Of a DNA stretch of 63,434 bases, positions 5,000 to 51,683 are shown in pieces. This DNA comes from an uncultured Candidatus Saccharibacteria bacterium (GTDB taxonomy: Bacteria; Patescibacteriota; Minisyncoccia; Minisyncoccales; JAGOPM01): positions 1 to 63,434 of the forward strand of contig CAZQSQ010000004.1 of the NCBI GenBank assembly GCA_964596325.1, written 5' to 3'. The stretch's first letter is position 1, and every line of letters begins with the position of its first letter. Below the pieces are notes generated by a model. That model had not been told where the DNA came from. It searched no databases and saw only the letters and a program-made list of their open reading frames with translations. Both the position numbers and the translations under genes were made by a program.

Positions 5000-7145
5000 T
5001 TATTTGTTGTTCATTCTTAGGGGCTGGCCAAATTTTGCCTAGTTCGGCGGCTGCACTTTGAATATTCCGTAAATTAATCCCATCACTGAGCTTTTCTTTA
5101 GCTACTTCCCAAACTGCCCGCCCTTTTTGTAAATTTTCCCCCAATGCATTACCCTTTAAGGCCTCTATTTTTGCCAAAAATGCGCGATATTGAGCATTTT
5201 TAGACTTGTCTTTAGATACGCTTATAGCCAAATCAATCCCAATTTTAGCCTTATCGGCGTCGCCTTCTTTTAAGAAAAAATCAGCGACTTTTTTATAAAT
5301 GTCTTCAGAAAAAATTGTTCCCGCATGTAAAACATCATCATAATATTTTTTCGCAGATGCAATATCTCCACTTTTCTCTGATGCATTGGCTGCAAGCAAT
5401 ACAGCTCTGTAATTGTCAGGGTCAGCTTCTAAAGATTTTTCCAAAATCTCTTTTGCCCTTACTGTTTGCCCAAAACTATCAGCCACTTGGGCAAAAATGG
5501 AATTGGCCTGCGGATCTTTTCCAAACTTAATTAAAGCACTATCAAGCATCTCTCTGGCCTTATCCGGACTCTCGTAGTCATTCGTGCCCACTATCAAGCG
5601 TGCGGCAAGAACAGGGTCGCTCGGGTCTGCATCCGAAGCCCTTTTTCTCAGGGCAAGAGCTCTTGTGGTATCTATGCTTAAATATTCAACAGCCACATTA
5701 TTTGCCACGGCCGCGAGCAAACTATTCTCCGCCGGAGCTACATGAAGGAATTCCTGCCCATATCGAAAACTAACACCTTGTTTGGATTTACCCGAAGCAA
5801 TATTGATAATATCCTGCAATTCTACTTTACTGCCATCGGGTTTTGTTCCAAATATTCGTCCACCACTAAGCTGAGAAGGAAGAGAAGTATCTGTATTTTC
5901 AACCAACCAAACTCGCCCCTCTTTGGTAGATATAATGGAAAGAACATGACCCGGAATATGCACGAGAGCATTATCAATTCCGGCCTCTTTCATTATTTGG
6001 CCAAAAAGTGCAGTTTTACCAAGACAATTTTGCGCCCTTAACTCACTAATTTTTTGCGGGGTATCGCTTTGGGGCTCAAAATCTAAAGTCCCGATTAATT
6101 TTTTGATATTACTCGCAAAGTCCAATTCGTCTGCGCCGGCGATATCTTCGGGAAAAGAGGACCTTTTCAAATCTTGTTTGATACGCTCGCGGAAATTTTT
6201 TACATCCACCAACTCCTCTATAGGGGCTCGGCGTTCAAAATAATATTCAAGCACATTAGCGGTTTCTGAATTATTCCCGCCAATTCCGGCCAATTCCTTT
6301 TTAAGCAACCCCTTATAGCCACCCTCTTGAATGGCTATTTCTAAATCCTGATAAGCGCGTTCCACTTCCCTGCCCAAATTACCCTGCGCCTTGGCATAAA
6401 AACGCTGCGCAACGGAGGGCGCTTCTTTCGAGTTAATTCTTTCTGAATTTTGGCGGCCGCCTTTTTCGGCCAAATGGAAATACTGTGCTAAAGTTTCCAA
6501 ACGCTTCACCTCCAAAGCCTCCTCTTGTAACTCTTTGGGCAGAACCTCAATGGCTGCTGTACGCTTTTTATAGAGATCCTCTCCGGCTAGCCATTTATCA
6601 AGATGCTTAGTTTCCTGGTCGCTTAAGGGTATCTCGGCAATAATCTTAAGCCACTCGTTATTATCTTCGGCAGAAAGCGGCCGAACCATTTCCTCCCCCA
6701 GAGCCTTCTGTCCGTATTCAAAAAACTCTTCCGCCGTCTTTTCGGCCATGCCGCGGCCATTGCCGATATTTTCCGCGCGCTTAGCGATATAAACTCCAGC
6801 ATTGCGGAAATTCTCGCCATATTCACGAACTTGTTCCTGCCACTGCTCCTGCATTTCGGGATCGCCTTCATAAACATCTAAAGCGACCTTCCCGGTAATT
6901 TTGGGCATTTCGTAAAACTTCATGTCGCGGGGCACATGCAAAACTTTTCTCTCACCCTCCAGTGAAATTGGCTGTTCCTTATATTCTTTTTCCCATTGGG
7001 CCCGCTCCAAAACATCCAGCTCCACATAGCTGTTTATCCTGCACCAATCCTCCATCAAATAGCGGGAAAATGGCTGGGATAATAATTCCCTTTCAGCCAC
7101 CTTCTCCATTCCCAAACCGATTTTTTGTTCAGGTTTTTGTTCCAT
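4992..7145 (-). CDS. Protein with a central transglutaminase/papain-like Cys-His motif and C-terminal TPR repeats
   Basis: NCLGKTALF..GHVLSII..WLVENT; TPR-like helices (A..ILEKSLEADPDNYRA, AKKYYDDVL); charged N-terminus. Confidence 0.55.
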   Translation of the reverse strand: MEQKPEQKIGLGMEKVAERELLSQPFSRYLMEDWCRINSYVELDVLERAQWEKEYKEQPISLEGERKVLHVPRDMKFYEMPKITGKVALDVYEGDPEMQEQWQEQVREYGENFRNAGVYIAKRAENIGNGRGMAEKTAEEFFEYGQKALGEEMVRPLSAEDNNEWLKIIAEIPLSDQETKHLDKWLAGEDLYKKRTAAIEVLPKELQEEALEVKRLETLAQYFHLAEKGGRQNSERINSKEAPSVAQRFYAKAQGNLGREVERAYQDLEIAIQEGGYKGLLKKELAGIGGNNSETANVLEYYFERRAPIEELVDVKNFRERIKQDLKRSSFPEDIAGADELDFASNIKKLIGTLDFEPQSDTPQKISELRAQNCLGKTALFGQIMKEAGIDNALVHIPGHVLSIISTKEGRVWLVENTDTSLPSQLSGGRIFGTKPDGSKVELQDIINIASGKSKQGVSFRYGQEFLHVAPAENSLLAAVANNVAVEYLSIDTTRALALRKRASDADPSDPVLAARLIVGTNDYESPDKAREMLDSALIKFGKDPQANSIFAQVADSFGQTVRAKEILEKSLEADPDNYRAVLLAANASEKSGDIASAKKYYDDVLHAGTIFSEDIYKKVADFFLKEGDADKAKIGIDLAISVSKDKSKNAQYRAFLAKIEALKGNALGENLQKGRAVWEVAKEKLSDGINLRNIQSAAAELGKIWPAPKNEQQINE

Positions 7146-8132
7146 TTACTTTTTCATCACCTTGCGCAATAGCCCACGGAAAGGCAAAGGCATGCCCCTG
7201 CCCAAAGGGCAGAAACTAGCTTTCTCCAAAGTGTCCAACATTTTATAAAATTCCGGATAATCAATTTTATTGCTCAAAACCATTTCCAAAATCCGGTGCG
7301 CACCCTCGCGGCAAGGCGTGCATTTATCGCAATTCTCATTGGTAAAAAACTGCGCCCATTCCTGCATCAAAAATATCGGGTCGGTCTTTTTCTTGCTGAA
7401 AACCACTATAGCCCCGGCACCTTCCACCAATTTATTGACCAATTCCTCTTTAAGATAAATTGCCCCGCTGGCCCCGCCGCCGCACTGGATAAAAAAGTCT
7501 TCATCCAACCAATTACCCGTCTGGCTTAAAATCTGTTTAATGGGCATATTCAGTTCCACTTCATAAACGCCAGGATTGGGAATATCTCCGGAAATGGTGG
7601 CAAAGCGCGTATTTTTATATTCGCCTTTGGCAATTTTGGAAACGCAATAAAATGTCTCGATATTATTTATCAAGGTTGGCTGCCCAAAAAGACCGCAAGT
7701 GGTCGGATAAGGCGGTTTAAGCCTTGGTTCTTGGAACTTGCCTTCAATAGTATTGAGCATGGCCGTCTCCTCTCCCCCGATGTAGTAACCTTCTTTGCGG
7801 AATTGCTTGATAGGCAAATTGCCAATATAGCGGTGCAGGTGTTGGGAATAGGAATGGAAGTAATCGTGGTTCAAATAAATATAAGCTTCGCTCTTGCCTA
7901 AAAATTCCAAAGCGATTTTAAGGCCGTTTATCAAATCTTCCGGATGGTTCTCGATGATGAATTTATCTTTGGCTACTTTAGGCTCGCCTTCACTGCCATT
8001 AGCGACAATATATTTATAATCAGCCTTGGCTTCTTTAACCATCTGCCATTTTTGCCAAACAGGAAAACCCGCCCCTCCCCGGCCGCGCAAATCCGCTTTC
8101 TTTAGTTTTTCAATAATTGAGCCTCCAAACAT
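7146..8132 (-). CDS. NuoF/HydB-like NADH-binding flavoprotein (minimal: FMN + SLBB + one 4Fe-4S)
   Basis: LRGRGGAGFP, NGSEGEP, YIGGEETAM, GLFGQPTLINNIET, ENCDKCTPCREG..FCPLG. Confidence 0.9.
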   Translation of the reverse strand: MFGGSIIEKLKKADLRGRGGAGFPVWQKWQMVKEAKADYKYIVANGSEGEPKVAKDKFIIENHPEDLINGLKIALEFLGKSEAYIYLNHDYFHSYSQHLHRYIGNLPIKQFRKEGYYIGGEETAMLNTIEGKFQEPRLKPPYPTTCGLFGQPTLINNIETFYCVSKIAKGEYKNTRFATISGDIPNPGVYEVELNMPIKQILSQTGNWLDEDFFIQCGGGASGAIYLKEELVNKLVEGAGAIVVFSKKKTDPIFLMQEWAQFFTNENCDKCTPCREGAHRILEMVLSNKIDYPEFYKMLDTLEKASFCPLGRGMPLPFRGLLRKVMKK

Positions 8133-14353: not shown

Positions 14354-14400
14354 TAATAGATTTTCTTAGCGAATTTTGAGCTTTAGAAAATCATGTATGC
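14354..14400 (+). repeat. Stand-alone copy of the ATTAG...TGTATGC hairpin element
   Basis: taatag-attttc-ttagc-gaattttga-gcttt-a-gaaaat-c-atgtatgc, right after the ROK terminator. Confidence 0.75.
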
Positions 14401-14439
14401 ACCGCTTACGTGTGCGCGGATGCGCACTGCGGGGCGAAT

Positions 14440-14476
14440 AAATTCAATCAATGCGAGTTCTCGAGCATTAGAATTT
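14440..14476 (+). repeat. Related hairpin (6-bp stem, 5-bp stem, GA..GA loop, bulged A)
   Basis: aaattc-aatc-aatgc-gagttctcga-gcatt-a-gaattt. Confidence 0.55.
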
Positions 14477-14626
14477 ATTAAACCTCGCCAAAGTGTAATC
14501 ACGGCGGCGGGGTAATACTTTGATTGGAAAGGGGAGATATGATTGACAAATCAAAATCATTATTGTATCGTATATATGCTTAGCAAAAAGGAGCTAGGCA
14601 AATTCATTTGCCAAAAAGGAGGCAAA

Positions 14627-21929: not shown

Positions 21930-22757
21930 ATGGCAATGAAAATTGAGGCAACGGTTGGTCTCTTACCAAAGTTGGTGGAAAATGGAAGCGGGGAAGCTAC
22001 CCGCCAAGTGCTGGAAACAATTCTCCCGATTTACAACAAATTTATACAAAGGAAACTTCATTGGTCCGATCCTGATCACAACTTCGGTGGTACCCCAGAG
22101 GCACGCATAATCATTCCTGTACCAAGAAACAGCTCCAACCCCTATGCCTATGCCATTACCGATCCTATTGGCATCCATGTTGTGGCCACCTCTTTCATTG
22201 AGGGAAACAAAAGCCACAAAAATTTCTTACTGGTTATTCCGCCACATGAAATCAAACGTTTTAACGACATTTTCTCTGAGGTCAATTTCGCCCTCGGAGA
22301 CAATGATCTTCTCGTCTGGGATAAACTCAAAGCCAACCGCGCCGAGCTGGAAAGTCTGACGCCCGACTACGAAGGCAAGCAGACCAAAAGGATGCTGGCA
22401 GAATTTGTAAAGCATTGTCAAAGATTTGGCATTTTCTCCGCTGCAGAAGCCCAAGAAAGAGAAGGGGAGTTTATCATTGCCTGTTCTCGGACCAGGGCTA
22501 AGGCCAAGGAAAATCGCGCCCGTTTCAAGGCAGATCTCGAACGTAAACGCTGTAGCCCTACGTCTCGATTCTATGATTCAAAATACTCAGATGGGACTTT
22601 TCCTGCAGCCGAAAGCAATGTAATGCAGAATTACATTGACAAGCGCTTTACCATTTACATACCAGAAAAATCCTGGCGTGGAGAAATGACGCTTTTCAAT
22701 CTCGCGAATGTGAGCATTGAAACCAAACCCGAAATCACACAGCTCTCAATTGATTAA
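21930..22757 (+). CDS. Hypothetical protein
   Basis: 275-aa ORF with its own TTGACA promoter, structured leader and terminator (aaacccgcc/ggcgggttt). Confidence 0.75.
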   Translation: MAMKIEATVGLLPKLVENGSGEATRQVLETILPIYNKFIQRKLHWSDPDHNFGGTPEARIIIPVPRNSSNPYAYAITDPIGIHVVATSFIEGNKSHKNFLLVIPPHEIKRFNDIFSEVNFALGDNDLLVWDKLKANRAELESLTPDYEGKQTKRMLAEFVKHCQRFGIFSAAEAQEREGEFIIACSRTRAKAKENRARFKADLERKRCSPTSRFYDSKYSDGTFPAAESNVMQNYIDKRFTIYIPEKSWRGEMTLFNLANVSIETKPEITQLSID

Positions 22758-22789
22758 TCACAAACCCGCCAATCGGCGGGTTTTTTATG

Positions 22790-22861
22790 TGCTCCCAGCA
22801 GGAATCGAACCTGCACCTGCAGCTTCGGAGGCCACTGTTGTATCCATTCAACTATGGGAGC
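22790..22861 (-). tRNA. tRNA-Arg(CCG), CCA not encoded
   Basis: GCTCCCA/TGGGAGC acceptor stem; GTGGC-CTCCGAA-GCTGC anticodon arm; GCAGG-TTCGATT-CCTGC T-arm. Confidence 0.92.
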
Positions 22862-22889
22862 AATACTCAATATTTGATTGTTCGATTCC

Positions 22890-23020
22890 TTTCCCAGCAG
22901 GCGCCGCCAAGGCGGCATACAAGGAATACTAAAATTCGCTGCGCTCATTTTGTATTCCTAATAATCGAACCTGCACCTGCAGCTTGCCAGGCCTCGTTGT
23001 ATCCATTCAACTATGGGAGC
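22890..23020 (-). pseudogene. Interrupted copy of tRNA-Arg(CCG): 61-nt insert after the T-loop, anticodon changed to GGC
   Basis: The 5' half, D-arm, variable loop and T-arm match the intact tRNA; insert at 22902-22962; 3' acceptor strand reads TGGGAAA. Confidence 0.85.
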
Positions 23021-23131
23021 AAAAGCATGTAAACCATATTAGCAATTTATAGCCCGGTTTCAATGCTTATTTGACATAAAAATGCTTTTGCTTAATAATG
23101 TCTCACTTAACAATTTATATAAAGGAGGTTT

Positions 23132-27035: not shown

Positions 27036-27578
27036 ATGAAAAATAAATCTGCCTGTTTCTTTGCCGCGCTTTTAGCCACCTTCTTTTTATTTTCTATAGC
27101 CTATGGAGCTACGAGCACTCCCAAAGATTTGGATTTTGATTTGCCCAAACCCTCTGCCCAAACGCCGATAGCCTGCGAAGCTTGGAAGGGCGGACTGCTG
27201 GAGGGTGTCTGCAAAGATCCCAGCAAATTGGAATTTTGCCACCTCTTTGTTTTGTTGGACAATATCATCAACTGGATAATGTTTGTGGCCATGCCCATAG
27301 CGGCTTTTCTCCTTTTGGTTTGGGGAGGGTTTAATTATATTATTTATCTGGAAAACCCGGCTAATGCCAAAAAATTCTGGGATACAGCCAAAGCTCTTCT
27401 GTGGGGTGCTATCGTTGTTTATGCCGCCTATGCCGTGGTTAACCTCTTCCTGATTATTGTCGGCGCCAAAATTTTCTCTCCGGAAGCCGGATTGGGACAA
27501 TGGTTCAAATTCCCTTGCGGAACCGGCACGCCGCCGGCGAGCACTTCCACCCCGCCGACCGGAGTCAGCGAATTCTAA
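27036..27578 (+). CDS. VirB2/TrbC-like (T4SS-type) pilin
   Basis: Signal peptide, Cys motif, two TMs (IINWIMFVAMPIAAFLLLVWGGFNYI..AKALLWGAIVVYAAYAVV); leaderless promoter. Confidence 0.75.
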   Translation: MKNKSACFFAALLATFFLFSIAYGATSTPKDLDFDLPKPSAQTPIACEAWKGGLLEGVCKDPSKLEFCHLFVLLDNIINWIMFVAMPIAAFLLLVWGGFNYIIYLENPANAKKFWDTAKALLWGAIVVYAAYAVVNLFLIIVGAKIFSPEAGLGQWFKFPCGTGTPPASTSTPPTGVSEF

Positions 27579-27681
27579 ATTCTTCGACCAATAATACATC
27601 AGCCAAAGCTTTCGCTTTGGCTTTTTGTTTAATAACGCCTTGCCAAAATATCAAAAAAATGCTATTGTCTTTTTTGTTCTA

Positions 27682-27755
27682 GCCTCCGTAGTTCAACGGT
27701 AGAACAGAGGACTCTTAATCCTTTAACGAGGGTTCGATTCCTTCCGGAGGCACCA
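27682..27755 (+). tRNA. tRNA-Lys(CTT)
   Basis: GCCTCCG/CGGAGGC acceptor stem; GAGGA-CTCTTAA-TCCTT anticodon arm; GAGGG-TTCGATT-CCTTC T-arm; CCA. Confidence 0.95.
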
Positions 27756-27803
27756 AAGCAAAAACCCGCCCTTATGGCGGGTTTTTGCTTTGCCCCGGAA
27801 GGA

Positions 27804-28212
27804 AAGAGAACGAAGTTCGATTATTAGAAACTCAAGCCGAAGAATGAGGCTTAGAGTTTCTTGTATGCCGAGTAATCTCGGCGCCTTCCGAAAATCGTAA
27901 AAAACCCGAGCAGAGGGTTCGATTTATTAGATTTTCAAAACGAGCACAGCGAGTTTTAGAAAATCTTGTATGCTGCGAAGCGGCCCTTCCGGAGAAAAAG
28001 AAGAGAACGAAGTTCGATTATTAGAAACTCAAGCCGAAGAATGAGGCTTAGAGTTTCTTGTATGCCGAGTAATCTCGGCGCCTTCCGAAAATCGTAAAAA
28101 ACCCGAGCAGAGGGTTCGATTTATTAGATTTTCTTGGCGAGCAAGGCGAGCCTTAGAAAATCATGTACCTGCCTGCCGGTAGGCAGGTGCCGGGTAATCC
28201 CGGCCCTTTCGG
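27804..28212 (+). repeat. Array of four interrupted tRNA-Lys T-arm copies (A-B-A-B), each holding a hairpin element
   Basis: Exact 133-bp direct repeat 27804-27936 / 28001-28133 (period 197); inserts at 27823-27883, 27925-27984, 28020-28080, 28122-28204. Confidence 0.9.
28167..28188. repeat. Short palindrome nested in the fourth array unit
   Basis: acctgcctgccggtaggcaggt splits the conserved TGTA|TGC. Confidence 0.75.
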
Positions 28213-28390
28213 AAAAAAGGAAAAGGCGCCAAGCGGCCCTTGCGGAAGAAGGTTAGGGCTTTGAATTTAAGACTTAGGGCTTAGCAATCCCCCTTGCAAA
28301 AGATAGAAAAATCAGGTATAATTAAATACCTTCGAAACAGCTGGAATAGGGCCTGCTCGCCCTAGGAAAGCACAAGTTTTTATAGAAAAT

Positions 28391-28654
28391 ATGCTTAAAA
28401 CAGAAAAGAAGCAAAAAATCATTAAAGGCGTTCAGACACACGATACGGATACCGGCTCGCCCGAAGTCCAAATCGCTGTTCTTACCGAACAGATAGAAAA
28501 GCTTTTGCAGCACTTGGATTCACATAAAAAAGATTTCCACTCCAAGCGCGGTCTCCTGAAGATGGTTATGAAGCGCAAAAAACTTCTAAATTATCTTAAG
28601 AGCGAAAGCGTTGAACGGTTTGAAAAGATCTCCAAAAAGATCGGCCTTAAATAA
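28391..28654 (+). CDS. rpsO: 30S ribosomal protein S15
   Basis: [31 protein letters not shown]. Confidence 0.97.
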
Positions 28655-41032: not shown

Positions 41033-41428
41033 ATGGATTATCCTGTACCACAAATACAACACGAAACTAAAATTGGCGGCCTAACCTTTTCACAGCTTAT
41101 TTTTGTCGGGGGAGGGGTGGCTTTAGCTTCTATATTGTATTTTATTATTCCCCAATATTCCCACATTGTTTTTCCGATTATCGCCCTAGTAACTTTAGGT
41201 TTGGCTTTTGGCAGCGTGCACGGTATGAGCATTCCGACTTTTGTAGGCAAAACCATTTCTTATTTTTTTATCGGGCACACCTATATATGGAAGAGTAAGC
41301 GCTATGAGATATTTTCCCAGCAAAACAAATTGCCCACAGAAAAAAAAGATACCGCCATGCCCGAATTGCCCAAATCGTCTATTACTAGAAGGCAAAGCAA
41401 AATTTCGGACTTAAATAAAATGATATGA
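41033..41428 (+). CDS. PrgI/VirB3-like protein
   Basis: YPVPQ..ETKIGGLTFSQLIF, two TMs, YIWK. Confidence 0.85.
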   Translation: MDYPVPQIQHETKIGGLTFSQLIFVGGGVALASILYFIIPQYSHIVFPIIALVTLGLAFGSVHGMSIPTFVGKTISYFFIGHTYIWKSKRYEIFSQQNKLPTEKKDTAMPELPKSSITRRQSKISDLNKMI

Positions 41429-42072
41429 TTGAAAGGCCTAAAAAAAATAATACTTTAGCCGCCCAAGACTTTTTAGGGATTTTAGATATCCGCGAGAGCA
41501 CAATAATCCTAAAAGATAAAAGTCTCCGCGGGCTGCTTTATGTCACTTCCCAAAATTTCGGGCTTAAATCCAGCGAAGAACAGGACGCCATTATTTTCCA
41601 ATTTCAACAATTTCTCAATTCTTTGGATTTTCCCTGCCAAATAGTCGTGCAGTCGCGCAAGCTGAACATGCAGCGCTATTTTGATGACCTGAGGGCCTTG
41701 GAGGGGCAGCAACAAAATCCTTTGTTAAAAATCCAAATGCAGGAATACCTGAAATTTATTGAAGGCTTGGTCAAATCCGGAACGATTATGACGAAAAACT
41801 TTTTCGTCGCCGTGCCCTTTTATCTGACAGAAATATCAGGGATTTCGGTAAGCAAAAAACTTGTTAATGATTTGACTGAAGAAAATTTCCAAAGAGCTAA
41901 AAACCAGCTTTGGCAACGTTTAGAATTTGTCGCCTTGGGCCTAAAACGCTCCGGCCTGCAAGCCGCCGCCTTAAGCACTGAGGAGATAATTGATTTGCTT
42001 TGGTCACTCTATCACACTCGCGAAGCCGAACAAGGGTATTACCCAGAGCTTCCGCCAGAATTAATCAAATAA
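41425..42072 (+). CDS. VirB4/TraE N-terminal-like accessory protein
   Basis: FGLKSSEEQDAIIFQFQQFLNSLDFPCQIVVQSRKL..KNFFVAVPF. Confidence 0.8.
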   Translation: MIERPKKNNTLAAQDFLGILDIRESTIILKDKSLRGLLYVTSQNFGLKSSEEQDAIIFQFQQFLNSLDFPCQIVVQSRKLNMQRYFDDLRALEGQQQNPLLKIQMQEYLKFIEGLVKSGTIMTKNFFVAVPFYLTEISGISVSKKLVNDLTEENFQRAKNQLWQRLEFVALGLKRSGLQAAALSTEEIIDLLWSLYHTREAEQGYYPELPPELIK

Positions 42073-42076
42073 CATT

Positions 42077-43876
42077 ATGGGATTGCTCGACTTCTTAAAA
42101 AAATCCAACCAGGATTCACCCCCCGTGCCACCGGGATTCGATAATTTCCAAACCGTAACCCCGATGGACATCATCGTCCCCAACGAAATCGATGTTAAAC
42201 CGACTATGTTAAGCCTGGGCGGGAGGCTTTCGCGAACTTACTTTATTTTTTCCTACCCCCGATATCTTAATGTCGGCTGGCTTTCCCAGGTGATAAATAT
42301 GGATACGGCCTTGGACATTTCCCTCTATATCCATCCCATGGATACGGCCAATACACTTAAAGAATTACGCCGCAAAGTTACGGATATTGAAGCGGAAATG
42401 ATGGATCGCGACCAAAAAGGACTTATTCGCGACCCTGGCCTGGAAACCGCTTACAAGGATTTGGAAGCCTTGCGCACTAACCTCCAAACAGGGCAGGAGA
42501 GAATATTCAATCTGGGTCTTTATATAACGGCTTATGCCGACCAAGAAGCCGAACTCAATGAAATTGAGCTGCAGTTGCGCCAAGCCTTAGAGGCCCGCCT
42601 CAGTTACATCAAGCCGGCTTATTACGAACAAAAAGAGGGCTTCATTTCTACTTCTCCATATTGCTGGGATTTGCTGGTTAAACACAGCCCCATGAACACC
42701 CAAACTTTAGCCACGAGTTTTCCCTTTATCTCCTTTGATTTAAGTTCCAACGAGGGTATCTTATACGGCATCAATAAACACAATAATTCCTTGGTGCTTT
42801 TTGACCGCTTCGGCCTGCAAAATGCCAACGAGGTTATTTTTGCCACAGCTGGTTCAGGAAAATCATATTTTGCCAAATTAGAAATTCTACGCCACTTGAT
42901 GTTTGGTGTCGATATTATCGTTATTGATCCGGAAAACGAATATAAATTCCTCTCTGAAGCGGTTGGCGGATCATTCTTTAATATCTCCTTATCGTCACAG
43001 GATCACGTTAATCCATTCGATATCTCTTGGAGCAACCCCGACGAAAACCCCGAGGATGTTTTACGCAGCAGTATTATCAGCTTGGTCGGGCTTTTTCGGA
43101 TTATGTTGGGAGGCTTGACTCCTGAAGAAGATTCTATTATCGACCAAGCCATAACCGAAACTTACGCCGCCAAAGATATCACCACTAAAAGCGATCCGAC
43201 TCTCTGGGCGGAAAATGTGCCCACGATGAGCGATTTCGAATCAGTTCTGGAGAATATGCAGGGAGCCGAGCACCTTTTGGCCAAAATCAGAAAATATACC
43301 CAAGGAACTTTCGCCCAATTCTTTAACCAAAAAACCAATATTACCCTTGATAATAATCTGGTGGTTTTTGGTATCCGTGATATGGAAGATTCGTTGCGCC
43401 CCATCGCCATCTATATGGTGATGAAATACGTTTGGAATATGGTACGCAGCTCGCTTAAAAAAAGAATTTTGGTTATTGATGAGGCTTGGTGGCTAATGCA
43501 AAACGAAGATTCGGCCTCTTTCTTATTTGGCATCGTCAAGCGCGCGCGCAAATATTGGCTAGGGGTTTCCACTATCACCCAAGACGTTGAAGACTTTATG
43601 AAATCGGAATATGGCAAGCCGGTAGTTACTAATTCTTCAATTGTTTTTTTGATGAAGCAATCCAGCGCCACTATTGAAACTGTTCAACAAACTTTTAACC
43701 TGACAGATGGAGAAAAAATGCTCCTCTTGGAATCTCCGGTAGGAGAGGGGATATTCTTTGCAGGGCAAAAACACGTTGTTATGAGAGCAATGGCCTCTTA
43801 TGCTGAGAACCAATTCATCACCACTAGTCCCGATGAGGTTAAAAAAATCATTGCGGCCAAAAAATTTGGGGGATGA
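42077..43876 (+). CDS. virB4: VirB4/TraC-like ATPase
   Basis: YGIN..SLVLFDRF; Walker A ATAGSGKS; VIDPENEY; Walker B ILVIDEAW; GEGIFF. Confidence 0.9.
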   Translation: MGLLDFLKKSNQDSPPVPPGFDNFQTVTPMDIIVPNEIDVKPTMLSLGGRLSRTYFIFSYPRYLNVGWLSQVINMDTALDISLYIHPMDTANTLKELRRKVTDIEAEMMDRDQKGLIRDPGLETAYKDLEALRTNLQTGQERIFNLGLYITAYADQEAELNEIELQLRQALEARLSYIKPAYYEQKEGFISTSPYCWDLLVKHSPMNTQTLATSFPFISFDLSSNEGILYGINKHNNSLVLFDRFGLQNANEVIFATAGSGKSYFAKLEILRHLMFGVDIIVIDPENEYKFLSEAVGGSFFNISLSSQDHVNPFDISWSNPDENPEDVLRSSIISLVGLFRIMLGGLTPEEDSIIDQAITETYAAKDITTKSDPTLWAENVPTMSDFESVLENMQGAEHLLAKIRKYTQGTFAQFFNQKTNITLDNNLVVFGIRDMEDSLRPIAIYMVMKYVWNMVRSSLKKRILVIDEAWWLMQNEDSASFLFGIVKRARKYWLGVSTITQDVEDFMKSEYGKPVVTNSSIVFLMKQSSATIETVQQTFNLTDGEKMLLLESPVGEGIFFAGQKHVVMRAMASYAENQFITTSPDEVKKIIAAKKFGG

Positions 43877-45807
43877 AAAATCCAATAATCAAAAAACTGT
43901 TTTGGCTTTCTTGGCTAGCCGCTTTGGCGGTTATTCTTTTTCCTTGTGCGACCTTTGCCCAAGTTAAAGCAGTACCCACACCAGTCACACCGAGCAATGA
44001 AGGTATAGTTACCCCGGTTAAACCGAACAATGACTTTCGAAATTGGTGCCAAGTAAATTATCCGAATTTTAACTGCAATAGCGTTCCGGATTTGGGCCAA
44101 TATATCGCTTATTTGTATCGCTTGGCCGTTTATGCCGCCGCCATAATTGTAATTTTTATAATCGTCCGGGAAGGCTTTGCTTATTTTTTAGCCTCGGGCA
44201 ATCCCGGCAAGTCCAATGAAGCCAAAGGGAAAATTTATTCGGCTTTTTTGGGTTTGATTATCCTTTTGGCCGGTTCGTTGATCTTAAGCACCATCAGCCC
44301 GAACCTAAACTCCCTGGACTTAAATTTGAAGCCCTTGGTTTACAGTTTTAAGGCCCTACAGGGCAAAGAGCGCACTGTTACCACCCGCTATCTAGCTATC
44401 CCACTGGGGGAAATAATCACTGAAGCTTCTTTTAGTGAAAATTTCATGAAATCCATTGTCGGGACGGCTGACCAGGCAGAGAAGCTGAAAAAAAATAATA
44501 AAGAAATCCAAGCGCTGGTTGAAGAATTTTATAGCACGATGCAGGTCTGCACCTGCGGACAGTCACGCTGTTTGGATAATGTTTCTCCTTGCAGTAATGC
44601 CATTTGCACTACCGGGTCTTGCGACAAAGAAAAGCTCGCTGCGCTAAAAAGCCAAATCACGGAAAAAATTTCCACTCAAAGAGAAAATATCGCCACCGTC
44701 CGCTCGGAAATGAGAAAACAAGGCAAGGGATTTGAAACACCTAAAAGCTCGCTGCGCCAATTAAGCGCGGTTAATACCTTGCTTAATTTGACCGACGGGA
44801 TAAATGTTATCGGTTATTATGATTTTTTATCTTTGCGTGAAGATGCGGGCAAAAATATAATCATTGAATACGACACCAATCCTTTCCCGGAGTGGAAGCC
44901 GCTTTTCGACAGAAAAACTTTTGATCCGACTGTTTTTTATATCAATAAAGAAGAAGCTGAACTCGCAATCATTCAAGCCCAACATTCTATGAAAAATATG
45001 AATGTTGACCCCATTACTGATGCAGAACGCTACAGCCATGGAGCCGCTAGCGGCACAAAAGACCCCAACTTCGACCCGGGAGATGATAGCGATCAGCCTT
45101 TGCCTGAACCGCCTAGCGATACTAATAAATTACCCAGAAACTATCCTATGTGGTACCAGGGCGATGGAGCTTGGGGGAATTGCCTGCGCGGCATAGGCGG
45201 CTCGGCGCCTTTATGGAAAAGTGGCTGCGCCGACACTTCTTTGTCTATGGCTATCGGTTATTGGTATAAATACAACGCTATCACCCGCCGCAGTTGGCTC
45301 TCTTACATCCGCAAGAACCCTCCGTCTTCTAATATGGATACGGCTGGGGGGTCTTGCTTACGCCCAGAAGGTGACGCTCCAGACCCTTATCGGGTGCTTT
45401 ATTATATGAATTACTACGGGGGCAACCTCTCTGATGGAACTTGGGATGAAGAGGCTTTGGGAAATTGGCTGGAGAAAATCAATCTGACTTTACAGCCGCT
45501 CTATAGAAAGTCTTTTGATGCAATCGCGCACCAGTCTAATGATTTGGGTAAAAGCGTTTTATTGTTTTGCGATCATTTTGGTTTAGGGCGTTCATATCGC
45601 GCCAGTAAAACCCGCTGCTCTTGGGAAGGGGATTTTGCCTGCAACCACTACGTTTTAGTGACAAAAGTCGAGGGAGATAAAATGTACATCAATGACCCGG
45701 GTTTTGGGGAACCTTACCTCACAAGGGGAGAATTCTCTTATTTTTCTTGCGGCGAGGTAGTAAATGAAGATATGTCTTTTGCAGTTTATCCAATAAAATG
45801 GAAATAA
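43873..45807 (+). CDS. T4SS pilin fused to a Cys-rich helical domain and a C39-like peptidase
   Basis: YIAYLYRLAV..GFAYFLASGNPGKSNEAKGKIYSAFLGL; WYQGDGAW..SGCADTS..NHYVLV..YINDPG. Confidence 0.78.
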   Translation: MKNPIIKKLFWLSWLAALAVILFPCATFAQVKAVPTPVTPSNEGIVTPVKPNNDFRNWCQVNYPNFNCNSVPDLGQYIAYLYRLAVYAAAIIVIFIIVREGFAYFLASGNPGKSNEAKGKIYSAFLGLIILLAGSLILSTISPNLNSLDLNLKPLVYSFKALQGKERTVTTRYLAIPLGEIITEASFSENFMKSIVGTADQAEKLKKNNKEIQALVEEFYSTMQVCTCGQSRCLDNVSPCSNAICTTGSCDKEKLAALKSQITEKISTQRENIATVRSEMRKQGKGFETPKSSLRQLSAVNTLLNLTDGINVIGYYDFLSLREDAGKNIIIEYDTNPFPEWKPLFDRKTFDPTVFYINKEEAELAIIQAQHSMKNMNVDPITDAERYSHGAASGTKDPNFDPGDDSDQPLPEPPSDTNKLPRNYPMWYQGDGAWGNCLRGIGGSAPLWKSGCADTSLSMAIGYWYKYNAITRRSWLSYIRKNPPSSNMDTAGGSCLRPEGDAPDPYRVLYYMNYYGGNLSDGTWDEEALGNWLEKINLTLQPLYRKSFDAIAHQSNDLGKSVLLFCDHFGLGRSYRASKTRCSWEGDFACNHYVLVTKVEGDKMYINDPGFGEPYLTRGEFSYFSCGEVVNEDMSFAVYPIKWK

Positions 45808-46691
45808 AAATCCGCCAATTTATATTCTTCCTATTATTGATTTCACCCCTGCACATTTGTGGAGCGGCAGTTTCCGCCACTCCAGCGCCCGATGTCTCAA
45901 CGATTGTGGAATACACTTCAAGCGGAAACCAAAACGAAGCTTATTTGCGCGATGCGATCCCGATCGGAGATGCTTTTTTTCATGCAATAAGGTTTTTAAC
46001 CGATATTAGTAATGAAATTGGCGGCATGACCGACGATTCGGAGGATTATCTTAATTCTGTCCAAAATTTTCTTAAACTCTCTGATTCTTGCAACCCCTCT
46101 TCGTGTAAAGCCCGCTGCGAATTTGATTGCCCCTCGGGTGCCAACGGCCCGCAGGATTGTTATTGCAAGCCTCTGCCGCCCGAGCCTAAAACCATGTGCA
46201 ATATGGAGGCAGCCGACGAAAACTATAAGCTTCTGACGGAAAAATTTGAAGCCGCTACTCGCAGCAGCCAAAACTATCTGGACCTTATCGAAAAGGCTAA
46301 GCCGCCCACCGACGATATTGAGAGGGTTAGCGGCGCCAGCTTAAGAGATATAATTATTGCCAGCCGCTCAATAGACCCTTATCGAGCATTTTACCAAAGC
46401 TATAACCAAATATTCCGAGGTAAAATTAATACCAGTTTGCCAGTAGTTTATCCGTCAAATTATGTTGTGGAAATGGAATATATAAAAAGAAAACTTGATC
46501 TTTCCCGGTTGGGATTTTTGCGCTGTAATACCCCCACTTCCAAAGAAGAAGATGTGATAGCTATCGGGGAAGGGGATATGGAATATAAGGGCCCTCTCCG
46601 GATAGATTTTATTCTACAAAATTATGGAACACTCCCCGATGAGCCCACCAACCATTTAGATTATTTTTGTTATTCTTATCAAAATATTTAA
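45798..46691 (+). CDS. Secreted Cys-rich protein
   Basis: Signal peptide; IPIGD..SCNPSSCKARCEFDC..DCYC..MCN. Confidence 0.7.
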   Translation: MEIKIRQFIFFLLLISPLHICGAAVSATPAPDVSTIVEYTSSGNQNEAYLRDAIPIGDAFFHAIRFLTDISNEIGGMTDDSEDYLNSVQNFLKLSDSCNPSSCKARCEFDCPSGANGPQDCYCKPLPPEPKTMCNMEAADENYKLLTEKFEAATRSSQNYLDLIEKAKPPTDDIERVSGASLRDIIIASRSIDPYRAFYQSYNQIFRGKINTSLPVVYPSNYVVEMEYIKRKLDLSRLGFLRCNTPTSKEEDVIAIGEGDMEYKGPLRIDFILQNYGTLPDEPTNHLDYFCYSYQNI

Positions 46692-46695
46692 TCTT

Positions 46696-48183
46696 ATGAA
46701 AAAATCTCTTCTTTCATATCTAACGCTCTTGGCGGGATTGTGGAGCGGCACCGCCTTAGCCCAAACCGTCCGAACTTCCGGACAAATCAATTATCCGAAA
46801 ACTTTTAATGGGCTGACAATTTTCCAAGGCAACCGCGCCCCGCTATTGCCTGATTATATCCAATACATCTTTACCCTGATTATTATGGCTGCCGGATTAA
46901 TCATTCTCTGGGTGATAATTTCCTCAGGATTTGAATGGTATATTTCCGCGGGTAATGCCGGAAAGGTCAAAGAATCTAAAGATCGAATCTTTGCTGCCTT
47001 TGTCGGAGTTATTATTTTATTTTTAGCCTATTTAATCTTGCAAACCATTAACCCGGCTCTAACAACCATGAATTTAACGACATATTCAACCGGGATAAGT
47101 ATCGAGAATTCCATGCAGGATAAAATAATGGCTCCGTATTATGTGGCTGACTTAACCACTCTTGATCCGCCGGGCAATACTATCAGAATCCCCCAAGAAC
47201 GGATTACTTCGACTAAAATTTACTTTTTTACCGGGCGCAATTTTTCCGGAGAACCAACAGAAGCCGCTTATAATTGGTCGTGCCCCGCACCGAAAGCCGG
47301 AGACGAAGACCAGAAGGCGATAGAATGCACCATGCCGCTTCCCGAAGCATACAATAAAGGCTCTTTGATTACTTATGAATTAAAGCCCGGGGTTTATATT
47401 TATAAAAGAGTAGGGCAATCAAAAATAAACCAACCATCCAAGGCTGTTATACCTTTTTATATCTCTGGCGATATCGCCAATATCGAATATATGAACGATT
47501 ACAGCAATATTCCCGGGAAAATAGTCGGTTTTAGAATTTATAACGGCACCGACCCCAAACGCCGAATCGGGATTGTGGCTTGGGAAGGGAAAAACTATGA
47601 AGGCAAAGGCGTTGTTTTTGCCCCACCATATCATCAAGGCTGGTCGCCGCAGGGAACCGAAGATAATCCTTCCGGTATTGCCACATTTCCTTGGGCCGAC
47701 AGTGAAGGCAAGCAATTAGATATCAAATCAATTAAAGTTTTAGAAGTCGGCAACCGCCAGCCCGCCGACGTAGAAGTTTATTCAGAGGGAGAATACTTCC
47801 CGGACAGCCTTTGCGAATTAATCGACAAATCCAGCGAAAATGAGACTGCGATGAAACAGCAATATCTGGAAATTAACTGTTCTCCGACCAGTAATAACTT
47901 TCCCAAATCAATCAGAGTGCGGAACGGCATTGCGGTTATGATCTCCCAATTTTATAACGGCCAAGACATGTCGCTTGTTTATGGCGGTAATCCCCACATA
48001 GCCGACAAATATTATTTGGGCTTTATTAAGGGAGAAGTTTTTAAGGGTAACGACCCCAACCTAAACGACAATAGGGAGATAGGGGAGTGTGTCTGCTCCA
48101 ACCGTAATTGGTGGACCTTGGGAATCGCTTGCGCCATCTGGCAATCTTGCGGCACACATCTTATGACCTTTCCAATTCTTTAA
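46696..48183 (+). CDS. T4SS pilin fused to beta/gamma-crystallin-like repeats
   Basis: YIQYIFTL..GFEWYISAGNAGKVKESKDRIFAAFVG; YFFTGRNFSG, AWEGKNYEG. Confidence 0.7.
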   Translation: MKKSLLSYLTLLAGLWSGTALAQTVRTSGQINYPKTFNGLTIFQGNRAPLLPDYIQYIFTLIIMAAGLIILWVIISSGFEWYISAGNAGKVKESKDRIFAAFVGVIILFLAYLILQTINPALTTMNLTTYSTGISIENSMQDKIMAPYYVADLTTLDPPGNTIRIPQERITSTKIYFFTGRNFSGEPTEAAYNWSCPAPKAGDEDQKAIECTMPLPEAYNKGSLITYELKPGVYIYKRVGQSKINQPSKAVIPFYISGDIANIEYMNDYSNIPGKIVGFRIYNGTDPKRRIGIVAWEGKNYEGKGVVFAPPYHQGWSPQGTEDNPSGIATFPWADSEGKQLDIKSIKVLEVGNRQPADVEVYSEGEYFPDSLCELIDKSSENETAMKQQYLEINCSPTSNNFPKSIRVRNGIAVMISQFYNGQDMSLVYGGNPHIADKYYLGFIKGEVFKGNDPNLNDNREIGECVCSNRNWWTLGIACAIWQSCGTHLMTFPIL

Positions 48184-48682: not shown

Positions 48683-49402
48683 TTACGACTTACTTAATAT
48701 TGTTTTTTGCACAATTAATGAAGCAACGATGGAAACGAGAAAATACAAACTCAGGGCAGAGGGGAGGCGGACCAAAATCAAGACAAAGGAAGCCATGAAA
48801 AATATATTCATATTCTTCATCATTTTTTCCTCAGGGTTTTTGGCTTTTTTGAAAACATTAACCCCAGAAACCAAGCTCATTTGAATAATTTGCAGAATGA
48901 CCACCCCTAAAGCTAGATATAAGTTTGTTTTGCTCAAATCTAAAATGCTGAGAAAATTGTAATTGATAGCGGCGGGTAATGCAACCCCGGGGTATAAAAA
49001 TGGGGTTTGGGCCCATTTTCCCGTTGCAAAATGTTGAGCAAACAGATTAAACATCTGGAATATCGCCCATAAAAACGGCAACTGGATAAAAAGCCCCGAG
49101 ATGCTGGCAAAGGGATTTAATTTCTCCTGTTGGTATAAATCCATCAAAGCTTTAGCTTGAGCCTCTTTATCATCCTTGAGCTTTCTTTGTATCTCTTCTA
49201 CCTTGGGCTGAATATCCTTCATTTTCTTCTGCTGCTTTTGGGCGCCGGTTTCAAATGGTAATAAAATAGCCTTAACGATTAAAGTAATTAAAATCACCAC
49301 GATGCCAAAATCCTTAATCGGCAAACTGTTGTATATCCAAAGAGATAAGTTAAATAATGGATAGAATAAAATTGTATTGTAGGCTTCAATAAAGATATTC
49401 AT
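48683..49402 (-). CDS. yidC: Membrane protein insertase YidC/Oxa1
   Basis: FGIVVILITLIVKAILLP, IQPKVEEIQ, FIQLPFLWAIF, PSALSLY. Confidence 0.93.
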   Translation of the reverse strand: MNIFIEAYNTILFYPLFNLSLWIYNSLPIKDFGIVVILITLIVKAILLPFETGAQKQQKKMKDIQPKVEEIQRKLKDDKEAQAKALMDLYQQEKLNPFASISGLFIQLPFLWAIFQMFNLFAQHFATGKWAQTPFLYPGVALPAAINYNFLSILDLSKTNLYLALGVVILQIIQMSLVSGVNVFKKAKNPEEKMMKNMNIFFMASFVLILVRLPSALSLYFLVSIVASLIVQKTILSKS

Positions 49403-49740
49403 TTGAGTGTTTTGATTTTAGCAAAGCAGGATTGTAAATCAATGCTTAATTGTTGATAGGTCGCCTGAGCGCAGGCGGGGAGGGCAATCACTAAAATATC
49501 CTTATGGTCAGTGAAGGTTTTGGCTTGCTTTCGGGTGATATCCCTTAAAATCCTTTTAACCTTATTACGGATTACCGCTTTTTTGGAAACCTTCAAGGAG
49601 GTAATAAAACCAAACCTGCTGTTAGGCAGGTTATTGGTTACGATTTTAATAATAAGATATTTTCCTTTTAGGGCTATTCCGGATTTAAGCACTCTGCCAA
49701 TATCTTTATTGCGCTTTAGCCGCAATGATCGTGGGAACAT
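49399..49740 (-). CDS. rnpA: RNase P protein
   Basis: RFGFITSLKVSKKAVIRNKVKR. Confidence 0.93.
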   Translation of the reverse strand: MFPRSLRLKRNKDIGRVLKSGIALKGKYLIIKIVTNNLPNSRFGFITSLKVSKKAVIRNKVKRILRDITRKQAKTFTDHKDILVIALPACAQATYQQLSIDLQSCFAKIKTLK

Positions 49741-49745
49741 AACTC

Positions 49746-49880
49746 TTAAACGGCTAAGCGCTTTCGGCCTCGGCTCCGACGGGCATTAATGAGCTTTTTA
49801 CCGCCCTTAGTCTTCATTCTTTTAAGAAAACCGTGGGTTCTAGCTCTCTTTTTCTTCTTAGGTTGGTATGTGAACGACAT
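49746..49880 (-). CDS. rpmH: 50S ribosomal protein L34
   Basis: [31 protein letters not shown] (start at 49880). Confidence 0.96.
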
Positions 49881-49959
49881 ATTTTTTACTAAACACATAG
49901 TAACAAAATTTGACTCTTTAGTCAAACTATTTTTATATTGCCAACATTCTATTAACAAC

Positions 49960-49991
49960 TTTTCCACAGGATGTTAACTTTCTGTGGAAAA
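49960..49991. promoter_or_regulatory. Inverted DnaA-box pair upstream of dnaA
   Basis: ttttccaca (49960-68) and tgtggaaaa (49983-91). Confidence 0.7.
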
Positions 49992-50029
49992 ATGTTCTGA
50001 TATTTGATTTTGTTGACATTATTTAAGGC

Positions 50030-51421: not shown

Positions 51422-51683
51422 TTGTTGATAAGTTTGTGGATTTTTTGTTGGAATATTATTAATTTGTTTGTTGATATTGTGGTATTAAAAATGGAAGAGT
51501 AGTGAATATAAAAACAAAAAAATAATTATTAAGATTTCACTTACAGAATTAAAAGCGGGCACAGATTAATTCAGATATTTATCCACAATAAAAACCGTTG
51601 ATTTGAAAGAAAATTATTCCAAATCCGCCAATTATTCACACATATAACAACAATAATAATTTTATTAATTATATTACCCACTT
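51422..51683. other. Probable oriC
   Basis: AT-rich dnaA-dnaN spacer with ttatccaca (51579-87), ttattcaca (51632-40) and tgttgataa (51423-31); the plus strand looks C/A-rich to the left and G/T-rich to the right (by eye, not computed). Confidence 0.8.

Follow-up and report, generated by a model that had tools for sequence, protein, structure and literature searches.

A short structured element that interrupts partial tRNA copies and follows a terminator in a Paceibacterota bacterium

The DNA analysed here (the window) is a 63,434-nt stretch of contig CAZQSQ010000004.1, from an uncultured Paceibacterota bacterium of the candidate phyla radiation (CPR), in which an array of interrupted partial tRNA-Lys copies lies between tRNA-Lys and rpsO. 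The unit of interest in this array is the insert and not the tRNA fragment: the inserts are variants of one short structured element, which also interrupts a tRNA-Arg pseudo-copy and follows a terminator elsewhere in the window. The reading that we favour, tentatively and just short of calling it probable, is that of a non-coding insertion element, confined to one lineage and dependent on structure; the array would have arisen by local duplication and recombination. The element behaves as a selfish or neutral insertion element. This reading follows from stem covariation with constant unpaired motifs and from the identical position in two tRNAs together with the terminator copy, and likewise from presence and absence that differ at all three loci, from module exchange and from a decaying older copy.

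The element and its three loci

All inserts are built alike, starting 5' with (T)ATTAGA and continuing with a 13-bp hairpin (hairpin 1), a TGTAT joint and one or two GC-rich hairpins, over a length of about 60 nt, or 83 nt in the fourth unit of the Lys array, which has an extra hairpin. In hairpin 1 one A is bulged, and the apex follows the pattern C-GA-R-N3-5-Y-GA-G. From nine copies we built a covariance model of this hairpin, termed R1, and statistics were calculated on the ten distinct copies recovered. In these copies, 89.7% of the cells were paired and both sides had changed in 11 of the 14 pairs. The covariation score was 0.533, against 0.203 after shuffling (0 of 500 shuffles reached it) and 0.05–0.18 with slid partners. 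There was no G-U pair among the 122 paired cells, and several of the mismatches were, by eye, C.A on this strand. Hairpin 2 has compensatory variants between lineages as well (GCCGAG/CTCGGC, GTCGGG/CCCGAC, GCCGGG/CCCGGC and GCCGCG/CGCGGC). Base pairing has been kept by compensatory substitution beyond the controls, as in a structured element, and the unpaired motifs (TTAGA, TGTAT, the bulged A and the tandem-GA apex) are constant.

An R1 scan of the window found six copies at three loci in 63 kb. The orientation of the element is constant and the same as that of the tRNA or terminator; the element lies directly 3' of a short stem and G-TT...TT, the site is T-loop nt 60 in the tRNA sequences and the T-run in a terminator. 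The loci other than the Lys array comprise the following features.

14356–14518, plus strand: block of about 163 nt right after the T-run of the terminator of a ROK gene, a site that lacks a tRNA
22789–22861, minus strand: intact tRNA-Arg(CCG), transcriptionally downstream of the pseudo-copy
22892–23020, minus strand: tRNA-Arg(CCG) pseudo-copy, nt 1–60 and 61–70, split at nt 60/61 by a 61-nt element (22902–22962)

The flanks of the element match the local tRNA, reading GAGGG TTCGATT / CCTTC CGGAG in the Lys fragments and GCAGG TTCGATT / CCTGC TGGGA in the Arg pseudo-copy (the slash marks the element), and the insertion position, nt 60/61, is identical in the two. An annotation made from the letters of the Lys array (the first-pass annotation) had suggested successive insertion; the same insert at nt 60/61 of the tRNA-Arg pseudo-copy and behind a terminator, together with empty sites in relatives, supports this more strongly than the array alone could.

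The Arg element, which was outside the training set, was matched by R1 at 22916–22961 on the minus strand (54.6 bits, E 4e-11, filters off). In its carrier the anticodon arm is altered and the acceptor truncated; nt 1–60 end in GCAGGTTCGATT, and nt 61–70 read CCTGCTGGGA. On the minus strand the locus runs from a promoter-like site (TTGAAA at 23058–23063...TAATAT, by eye) through the pseudo-copy with its element, a 30-nt linker (22862–22891) that holds an antisense T-loop piece (GGAATCGAAC) and the intact tRNA-Arg to a terminator. A relative recorded as “Candidatus Paceibacterota bacterium” (JBAZJI010000001.1; L002 and L104), with ~90–93% identity to the window in two coding genes, is on that sequence basis best regarded as a sister species of the window organism. 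It shares the Arg pseudo-copy and element, with the module inverted as a block (window 22789–23063 vs L104:4690–4932). Hairpin 1 has partly decayed there (40.7 vs 54.6 bits; GAG to AAG, and a C.A mismatch), which fits weak constraint on an old copy, and hairpin 2 has been replaced by the hairpin of Lys unit B' (GCCGGGTAATCCCGGC). Lineage-specific substitutions common to the pseudo and intact tRNA-Arg indicate concerted evolution. In the more distant relative L101, the homologous promoter directly adjoins the intact tRNA-Arg and there is no pseudo-copy. Convergent with tRNA-Arg(CCG) in the window is a 275-aa gene (21930–22757) with no Pfam match, which is absent from sister species L104 and for which only two homologues were found among 5.8 billion proteins.

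The ROK block begins with a full element (hairpin 1 at 14356–14399 plus nested GC hairpins; R1 57.3 bits, this copy being within the training set). The remainder is a degenerate T-arm-like unit (GCGAG TTCTCGAGC ATTAGAATTTATTAAAC CTCGC) with an element remnant, followed by a truncated GC hairpin. The left junction reads GCGCGG TTTTTTA / element. In the sister species (L107 and L109), the flanks align on both sides, the ~163 nt are absent, and GCGCGGTTTTTTTA is joined directly to TCCC..., which is an empty site. The block looks like a fragment of an array.

Anatomy and variation of the Lys array

The array and its bounds consist of the following features.

27640–27668, plus strand: promoter-like site of tRNA-Lys (TTGCCA, 17 nt, TATTGT; promoter prediction)
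27682–27755, plus strand: intact tRNA-Lys(CTT) with CCA encoded (ARAGORN; Rfam tRNA model, 71.5 bits)
27732–27811, no strand: long palindrome with arms of ~39 nt (inverted repeats of 17 nt, 100%, and 10 nt, 100%)
27812–27890, plus strand: unit 1 (A), comprising GAAGTTCGATT (27812–27822), a 61-nt insert (27823–27883) and CCTTCCG, tRNA nt 61–67 (27884–27890); R1 match 27824–27867, 57.8 bits
27913–27994, plus strand: unit 2 (B), comprising GAGGGTTCGATT (27913–27924), a 60-nt insert (27925–27984) and CCTTCCGGAG (27985–27994); R1 match 27927–27972, 70.1 bits
28009–28087, plus strand: unit 3 (A); R1 match 28021–28064
28110–28214, plus strand: unit 4 (B'), comprising GAGGGTTCGATT (28110–28121), an 83-nt insert (28122–28204) with the extra hairpin at 28167–28188, and CCTTTCGGAA (28205–28214); R1 match 28124–28169, 66 bits
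~28231–28252, plus strand: fifth unit, 5'-truncated (AAGCGGCCCTTGCGGAAGAAGG), matching the end of a B unit (direct-repeat search)
28294–28322, plus strand: rpsO promoter (TTGCAA, 17 nt, TATAAT; promoter prediction), the right bound of the array

Repeat and tRNA comparison confirmed the earlier description of four interrupted 3' parts of tRNA-Lys, A-B-A-B, behind the tRNA-Lys terminator; the array is here written A-B-A-B' plus a truncated fifth tail. Each unit consists of a copy of the 5' strand of the tRNA-Lys T-stem and the T-loop, an insert of 60–83 nt, tRNA nt 61 to ~70 and an A/G-rich linker. Tandem Repeats Finder reported a period of 197 with 1.8 copies and 94% matches, and 27804–27936 is repeated exactly, over 133 nt, at 28001–28133. 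Units 1 and 3, which had been called identical, do not differ over 79 nt, unit 3 being unit 1 shifted by 197. Units 2 and 4 had been said to differ only inside the hairpins; they do differ within hairpin 2 and the middle stem of hairpin 1, and one base of the tRNA-derived 3' flank differs as well. The degenerate fifth tail of the same account is real and longer than described, being a 5'-truncated unit that is homologous to the distal tRNA fragment adjoining unique sequence in L009 and L003. The flanks of the B unit (12 nt and 10 nt) are exact copies of tRNA-Lys nt 49–60 (GAGGGTTCGATT) and nt 61–70 (CCTTCCGGAG). The window contains 13 occurrences of the motif GTTCGATT, where 4.1 are expected; the other sites of this motif (20892, 52007 and 60869), all within coding sequence, were dismissed as chance.

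The terminator of tRNA-Lys is a perfect 17-bp hairpin with a T-run (27754–27792; inverted-repeat search, 17 nt, 100%), and it forms the centre of the long palindrome. The left half of the palindrome is made of tRNA nt 53–73 and the left arm of the terminator, and the right half of the right arm and a copy of the tRNA 3' end that is inverted but not interrupted (CCCCGGAAGGAAAGAGAAC, 27793–27811). The same design is found in four lineages (the window, L009, L002 and L056) despite differing terminator sequences. In the predicted folds, this inverted copy would provide the 5' strand of a 7–10-bp stem closing unit A, which is modelled as a closed four-way junction with three hairpins (−42 kcal/mol) and a 7-bp closing stem between CGGAAGG (27796–27802) and CCTTCCG; the predicted fold of the whole array has z = −8.9. 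The GAAC-GAA-GTTC junction is the centre of a second, small palindrome.

The 3' trailer of tRNA-Lys, and hence the encoded CCA, is exchanged together with the terminator cassette. The CCA (GCACCAAAGC) occurs only with the window-type cassette (27753–27760 vs L002, L004 and L009), and the other cassettes read GCACATA... or GCACAATAA... after tRNA-Lys. The cassette behind tRNA-Lys at L004:2460–2500 (CAATAATAAAAGACCCGC...) is similar to one behind tRNA-Arg(CCG) at L101:1–35 (CCAATAATAAAAGAGCCGG...), which may reflect a repeated terminator family or the convergence of simple A/T-flanked hairpins.

To compare the locus among assemblies, we used contigs encoding an identical S15 or the identical 180-aa protein upstream, with near-identical flanks. 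Among these, the interval from tRNA-Lys to rpsO measures 812, 716, 680, 615, 584, 575 or 314 nt, and the arrays read as follows.

Window and L001: A-B-A-B'
L005 and L006: A-B'
L004: B-A-B', with a different terminator in front
L067: B-A-B'''
L009 and L010: A-B'', with a third terminator in front
L002: a chimeric unit and a degenerate unit
L003: array absent

Unit 1 of L002 is a mosaic of the A 5' flank, hairpin 1 of B', hairpin 2 of A and the B 3' flank. Variation is greatest in the part of the array next to the tRNA, terminator cassette included, with at least three distinct cassettes between identical flanks. Beyond these close relatives, an inverted tRNA-Lys in L101 (S15 90% identical) precedes a terminator, a single A unit that has undergone many compensatory changes and the truncated beginning of a B unit, and the still more distant L060 has only tRNA-Lys and a terminator. 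Tandem amplification, which had been proposed for the array, is upheld in the form of a recent duplication, with 133 nt identical and relatives carrying A-B', B-A-B' or no array.

An assembly artefact, in the form of a collapsed or chimeric repeat, can hardly account for these arrays. Repeats are often mis-joined in short-read metagenome assemblies, and Logan unitigs break at repeat borders. However, in the DNA run X2 the 133-nt unitig had a depth of 42 against 21–22 in the flanks (~2x), which supports duplication; a unitig across the B-to-A junction was found in four runs; and independent assemblies (JGI, ENA, NCBI and Logan) yielded consistent, related array variants. Neither the collapse of the repeat nor the invariance of the array, either of which the first-pass annotation would have taken as grounds for withdrawal, was seen.

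In L003 (ENA k127_321057; L003:2663–2760), CCTTCCGGAGG marks the point at which tRNA-Lys joins the distal fragment AAGGTATAGGC; the fusion loses C72, A73 and any CCA or terminator and leaves a G1.A72 mismatch, and either a crippled tRNA-Lys(CTT) is tolerated in that strain or the contig is chimeric. In L056 the Lys module with its units is inverted as a block (window 27682–28250 vs L056:1870–2115). The contig L061 (1–74; S15 86% identical) stops 2 nt past the 3' end of tRNA-Lys, a break that would fit with a repeat array beyond it.

Weighing the explanations

Under the favoured reading of a structure-dependent insertion element, recognition by the mobilising machinery would be what keeps the hairpins. 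Any movement of the element, its level (DNA or RNA) and the action of a mobiliser are points that we infer. Only redundant tRNA material, namely partial 3' copies of tRNA-Lys and a spare copy of tRNA-Arg, would be occupied, because an insertion into the sole functional gene would be lost. Local recombination, acting between the direct repeats of tRNA origin, would have built the Lys array and would keep remodelling it: tandem duplication could give A-B-A-B', deletion could give A-B' or no array, modules may be exchanged between units and between loci, and the tRNA 3' end may have been folded back or duplicated in inverted form around the terminator. The earlier idea that the array is an acquisition record is not supported: a single conserved, structured element underlies all the inserts, which are its variants and not captured foreign sequences.

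Several observations weigh against this reading. Terminal inverted repeats and a target-site duplication were not found, the element ending in ATTAGA.../...GGCG between flanks GATT and CCTTC, and Pfam scans of 40 open reading frames (ORFs) in the window showed no integrase, transposase or reverse transcriptase. The evidence comes from three loci in one narrow lineage; with the present outgroups the empty and filled sites are unpolarised, and an empty site may in each case have arisen by deletion. The ROK block finishes on the right with a truncated unit, more like a copied patch of array than the precise end of a transposon. Judged from its sequence, the Arg element sits within the tRNA transcription unit, and the altered anticodon arm of its carrier has been kept in both species despite otherwise concerted evolution. 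That arm, the tandem-GA apex and the conserved unpaired nucleotides would also fit a functional RNA.

A functional RNA is rather unlikely in our estimate. The units would in this case be tRNA-linked structured RNAs, mimicking the T-arm or shaped like a cloverleaf, that share a transcript with the tRNA and are freed by tRNA-processing enzymes; the Arg units would be made as a 5' leader and the Lys units by read-through of the terminator, and a role as a decoy, sponge or protein-binding RNA is possible. Strong covariation alongside conserved single-stranded TTAGA, TGTAT, bulged A and tandem-GA apex is in keeping with this, as are the modelled four-way junction of unit A and the z-score of the predicted array fold. 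The 5' strand of the closing stem varies compatibly in other lineages (TGGAAGG, CTCCGAAAGG and TCCGGAAGG), and a T-loop can structurally tolerate insertions after nt 58–60. At the Arg locus, the pseudo-copy lies between a promoter and an intact tRNA and should be transcribed, and the conservation of its altered anticodon arm counts in the same direction. The Lys array, however, lies behind the 17-bp terminator and ahead of the rpsO promoter; only two promoter-like sites were predicted in the region, those of tRNA-Lys and rpsO, and none inside the array. We examined four metatranscriptomes with rpsO mRNA, all at low coverage, in at least three of which rpsO RNA contigs (window 28341–28654) start at 28341–28351, ~20–30 nt past the predicted −10 box. 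No RNA contig over the array or the Arg leader was present in the four, in which the tRNAs were equally unseen at this low coverage. The terminator, the lack of a predicted promoter and the lack of an RNA contig also tell against the processed tRNA-like small RNAs suggested earlier, although the tRNA itself was unseen too, so that small structured RNAs may have escaped notice. In addition, there is no matching Rfam family, units are freely gained and lost with one assembly carrying none, G-U pairs are absent from the 122 paired cells, and in the sister species the Arg element shows decay and the ROK-terminator copy is missing.

Purely local rearrangement, by template switching at the quasi-palindromic T-arm or terminator, unequal crossing-over and ectopic gene conversion that would spread the hairpin, is improbable as a full account: it leaves unexplained why an unrelated 61-nt element lies at exactly nt 60/61 in two tRNAs and at a terminator T-run, and why covarying stems go with constant unpaired motifs. 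Such processes would nevertheless suit the palindrome with ~39-nt arms that recurs around different terminators, the second palindrome centre at GAAC-GAA-GTTC, the antisense T-loop piece in the Arg linker and the inversion of tRNA modules between lineages, and mosaic units and concerted evolution show recombination to be active at these loci. Relics of integrase-mediated integration, with the T-loop or 3' end of the tRNA as attB and repeated erosion leaving tandem att fragments, are quite improbable. Integration at tRNA genes, which are classical integration sites, leaves partial tRNA copies as direct repeats (PMC9897764; Williams 2002 cited there), and the greater variability of the tRNA-proximal part would be expected if incoming DNA brought a new tRNA 3' end. 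Against this, the tRNA repeats are non-contiguous, being split at nt 60/61 where a contiguous att core was looked for, and the fragments stop at nt 67–71, short of the tRNA 3' end. The units of ~100 nt carry no cargo, and neither the 40 ORFs scanned in the 63-kb window nor the neighbourhoods that were fetched yielded an integrase. Moreover, the partial Arg copy keeps the 5' 60 nt and adjoins the resident promoter, and the element also occurs at a non-tRNA site.

A stronger form of the insertion hypothesis, which we regard as quite doubtful, proposes that the element is actively mobile and strand-specific, homing to the T-loop/T-stem junction at tRNA nt 60/61 and to the 3' ends of terminators. 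Such an element might use an RNA or single-stranded intermediate and co-copy part of the tRNA, and the co-copying would explain the 5'-truncated tRNA heads, the fixed 3' limit near nt 70 and the A/G-rich tails. It would then form a bacterial parallel to mobile tRNA introns or to tRNA-derived elements like the short interspersed elements (SINEs), with its cloverleaf-shaped units possibly made as RNAs.

The genomes of CPR/Patescibacteria are small and are regarded as poor in mobile DNA. If the insertion-element reading is true, the element, by repeatedly occupying a single exact position in tRNA T-arms and driving a hypervariable array beside the essential rpsO-pnp operon, would add a new source of plasticity to CPR genomes, and would serve as a fine-scale strain marker. 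For annotation, such tRNA-like fragments are neither tRNA genes nor simple att scars. If the element is mobile, the target rule (stem and G-TT...TT) and the conserved hairpin would point to an undescribed structure-specific insertion machinery; if it is transcribed, it would represent a new class of tRNA-linked RNA.

Distribution, surroundings and known systems

The element was not found outside this Paceibacterota lineage in wider scans that were limited and, in one case, mis-specified. A genome-collection scan with TAGAYTTTCN{12,30}AGAAAATCWTRTA, a pattern specific to B-type stems and narrower than the element, recovered the sister-species locus L021 only, the other 43 matches being chance inverted repeats. 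A metagenome scan in which the gap was set to 35–55, against a real 30–32, gave 19 matches, all by chance and mostly in coding DNA; the corrected pattern for the element is GTTCGATTN{0,1}ATTAGN{30,40}TGTATG. Scans of viral contigs with three patterns gave chance matches only, and blastn of units A and B against phages and plasmids gave no match. With Rfam 15, only the true tRNAs passed in cmscan (E ≤10 over 27400–28500 and E ≤1 over 22700–23100); the best sub-threshold matches over the units were weak (E 2.7–4.4), far under the gathering score, and there was no match to tRNA-like Y RNA, ribozymes, S15 leaders or introns. A literature search found nothing specific on T-loop insertions in CPR tRNAs or on comparable arrays.

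No Phage_integrase, recombinase or resolvase domain was matched in the 40 ORFs scanned or appeared in the Pfam lists precomputed for the neighbourhoods, and the Pfam scan of these ORFs showed no Y1 transposase in the window. In window 49400–52802, yidC and a KH/R3H (jag-like) gene on the minus strand are followed by dnaA and dnaN on the plus strand (50–52.8 kb), and the replication origin is probably near 49.7–50 kb, ~22 kb from the array. An NYN-domain gene lies between rpsO and pnp in every relative seen. Weak matches to type IV secretion pilin, PrgI and TraG/VirB4-like proteins occur at window 27036–27578 and 41033–48183, the 180-aa gene just upstream of tRNA-Lys being among the genes concerned. 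At 3275–8132, [FeFe]-hydrogenase large-subunit-like and NuoF-like genes adjoin a gene for a TPR protein.

Some known systems were considered for the array and rejected: a retron, for want of a reverse transcriptase; integron attC sites, for want of R boxes and cassettes; an autoregulatory S15 leader, because the rpsO promoter comes after the array and the element is also present at unrelated loci; and a TIGR- or CRISPR-like guide array, because the inserts are one conserved element and there is no associated gene.

Closer likenesses exist to other systems. As in tRNA integration scars, the locus varies between strains and contains partial tRNA copies, directly repeated, beside an intact gene (PMC9897764). 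Unlike such scars, the copies here are split at nt 60/61, stop at nt 67–71 and come in units of ~100 nt without cargo or integrase; inverted copies also occur, as does the element away from tRNAs. Clusters of repetitive extragenic palindromes (REPs) or bacterial interspersed mosaic elements (BIMEs), miniature inverted-repeat transposable elements (MITEs) and the Rickettsia palindromic elements are short non-coding hairpin repeats, often behind terminators, and those of Rickettsia enter RNA genes. Tandem alternating unit types, compensatory stems and strain-variable copy number are shared with these families. The present element differs from them in having no terminal inverted repeats, target-site duplication or REP-type GTAG, in its single orientation, in its precise position inside the tRNA T-arm and in the few copies known so far. 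The terminal inverted repeats and target-site duplication that define a MITE are therefore lacking, and a comparison with REP/BIME clusters, which have many dispersed intergenic copies per genome and an associated RAYT transposase, found six copies at three loci in the 63 kb of the window and no Y1 transposase there.

Group IIC introns insert strand-specifically just past a terminator-like stem and T-run, or past other inverted repeats (PMC1702495). Insertion after a stem-loop and T's is matched here at the ROK terminator and at the T-loops (stem and GTTCGATT). Unlike these introns, the element is only ~60 nt long and has no 5' GUGYG, domain V/VI, reverse transcriptase ORF or Rfam intron match. 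Mobile archaeal tRNA introns occur at non-canonical positions that include the T-loop, and they resemble the element in that one related short sequence occupies equivalent positions in different tRNA genes; however, the host here is a bacterium, and no bulge-helix-bulge motif or complementary junction helix can be drawn. In contrast to tRNA introns generally, bacterial group I introns included, the carriers are truncated pseudo-copies and not functional tRNAs: all are without acceptor nt 71–76, the Lys units are also without nt 1–48, and none is called by ARAGORN or the tRNA model. Miniature derivatives of the IS200/IS605 type have neither inverted terminal repeats nor target duplication, carry hairpins near both ends and, like the element, insert 3' of a short T-rich target in one orientation. 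The element differs in its two dissimilar hairpins, in that no TnpA/TnpB gene was seen, and in having copies on both replication strands relative to dnaA, as judged from three loci only. Overall, the array resembles integration-site tRNA fragments and REP/BIME or MITE-like repeats, and the choice of site resembles that of group IIC introns, although integration-site fragments, MITEs and group IIC introns each have defining features that are lacking here.

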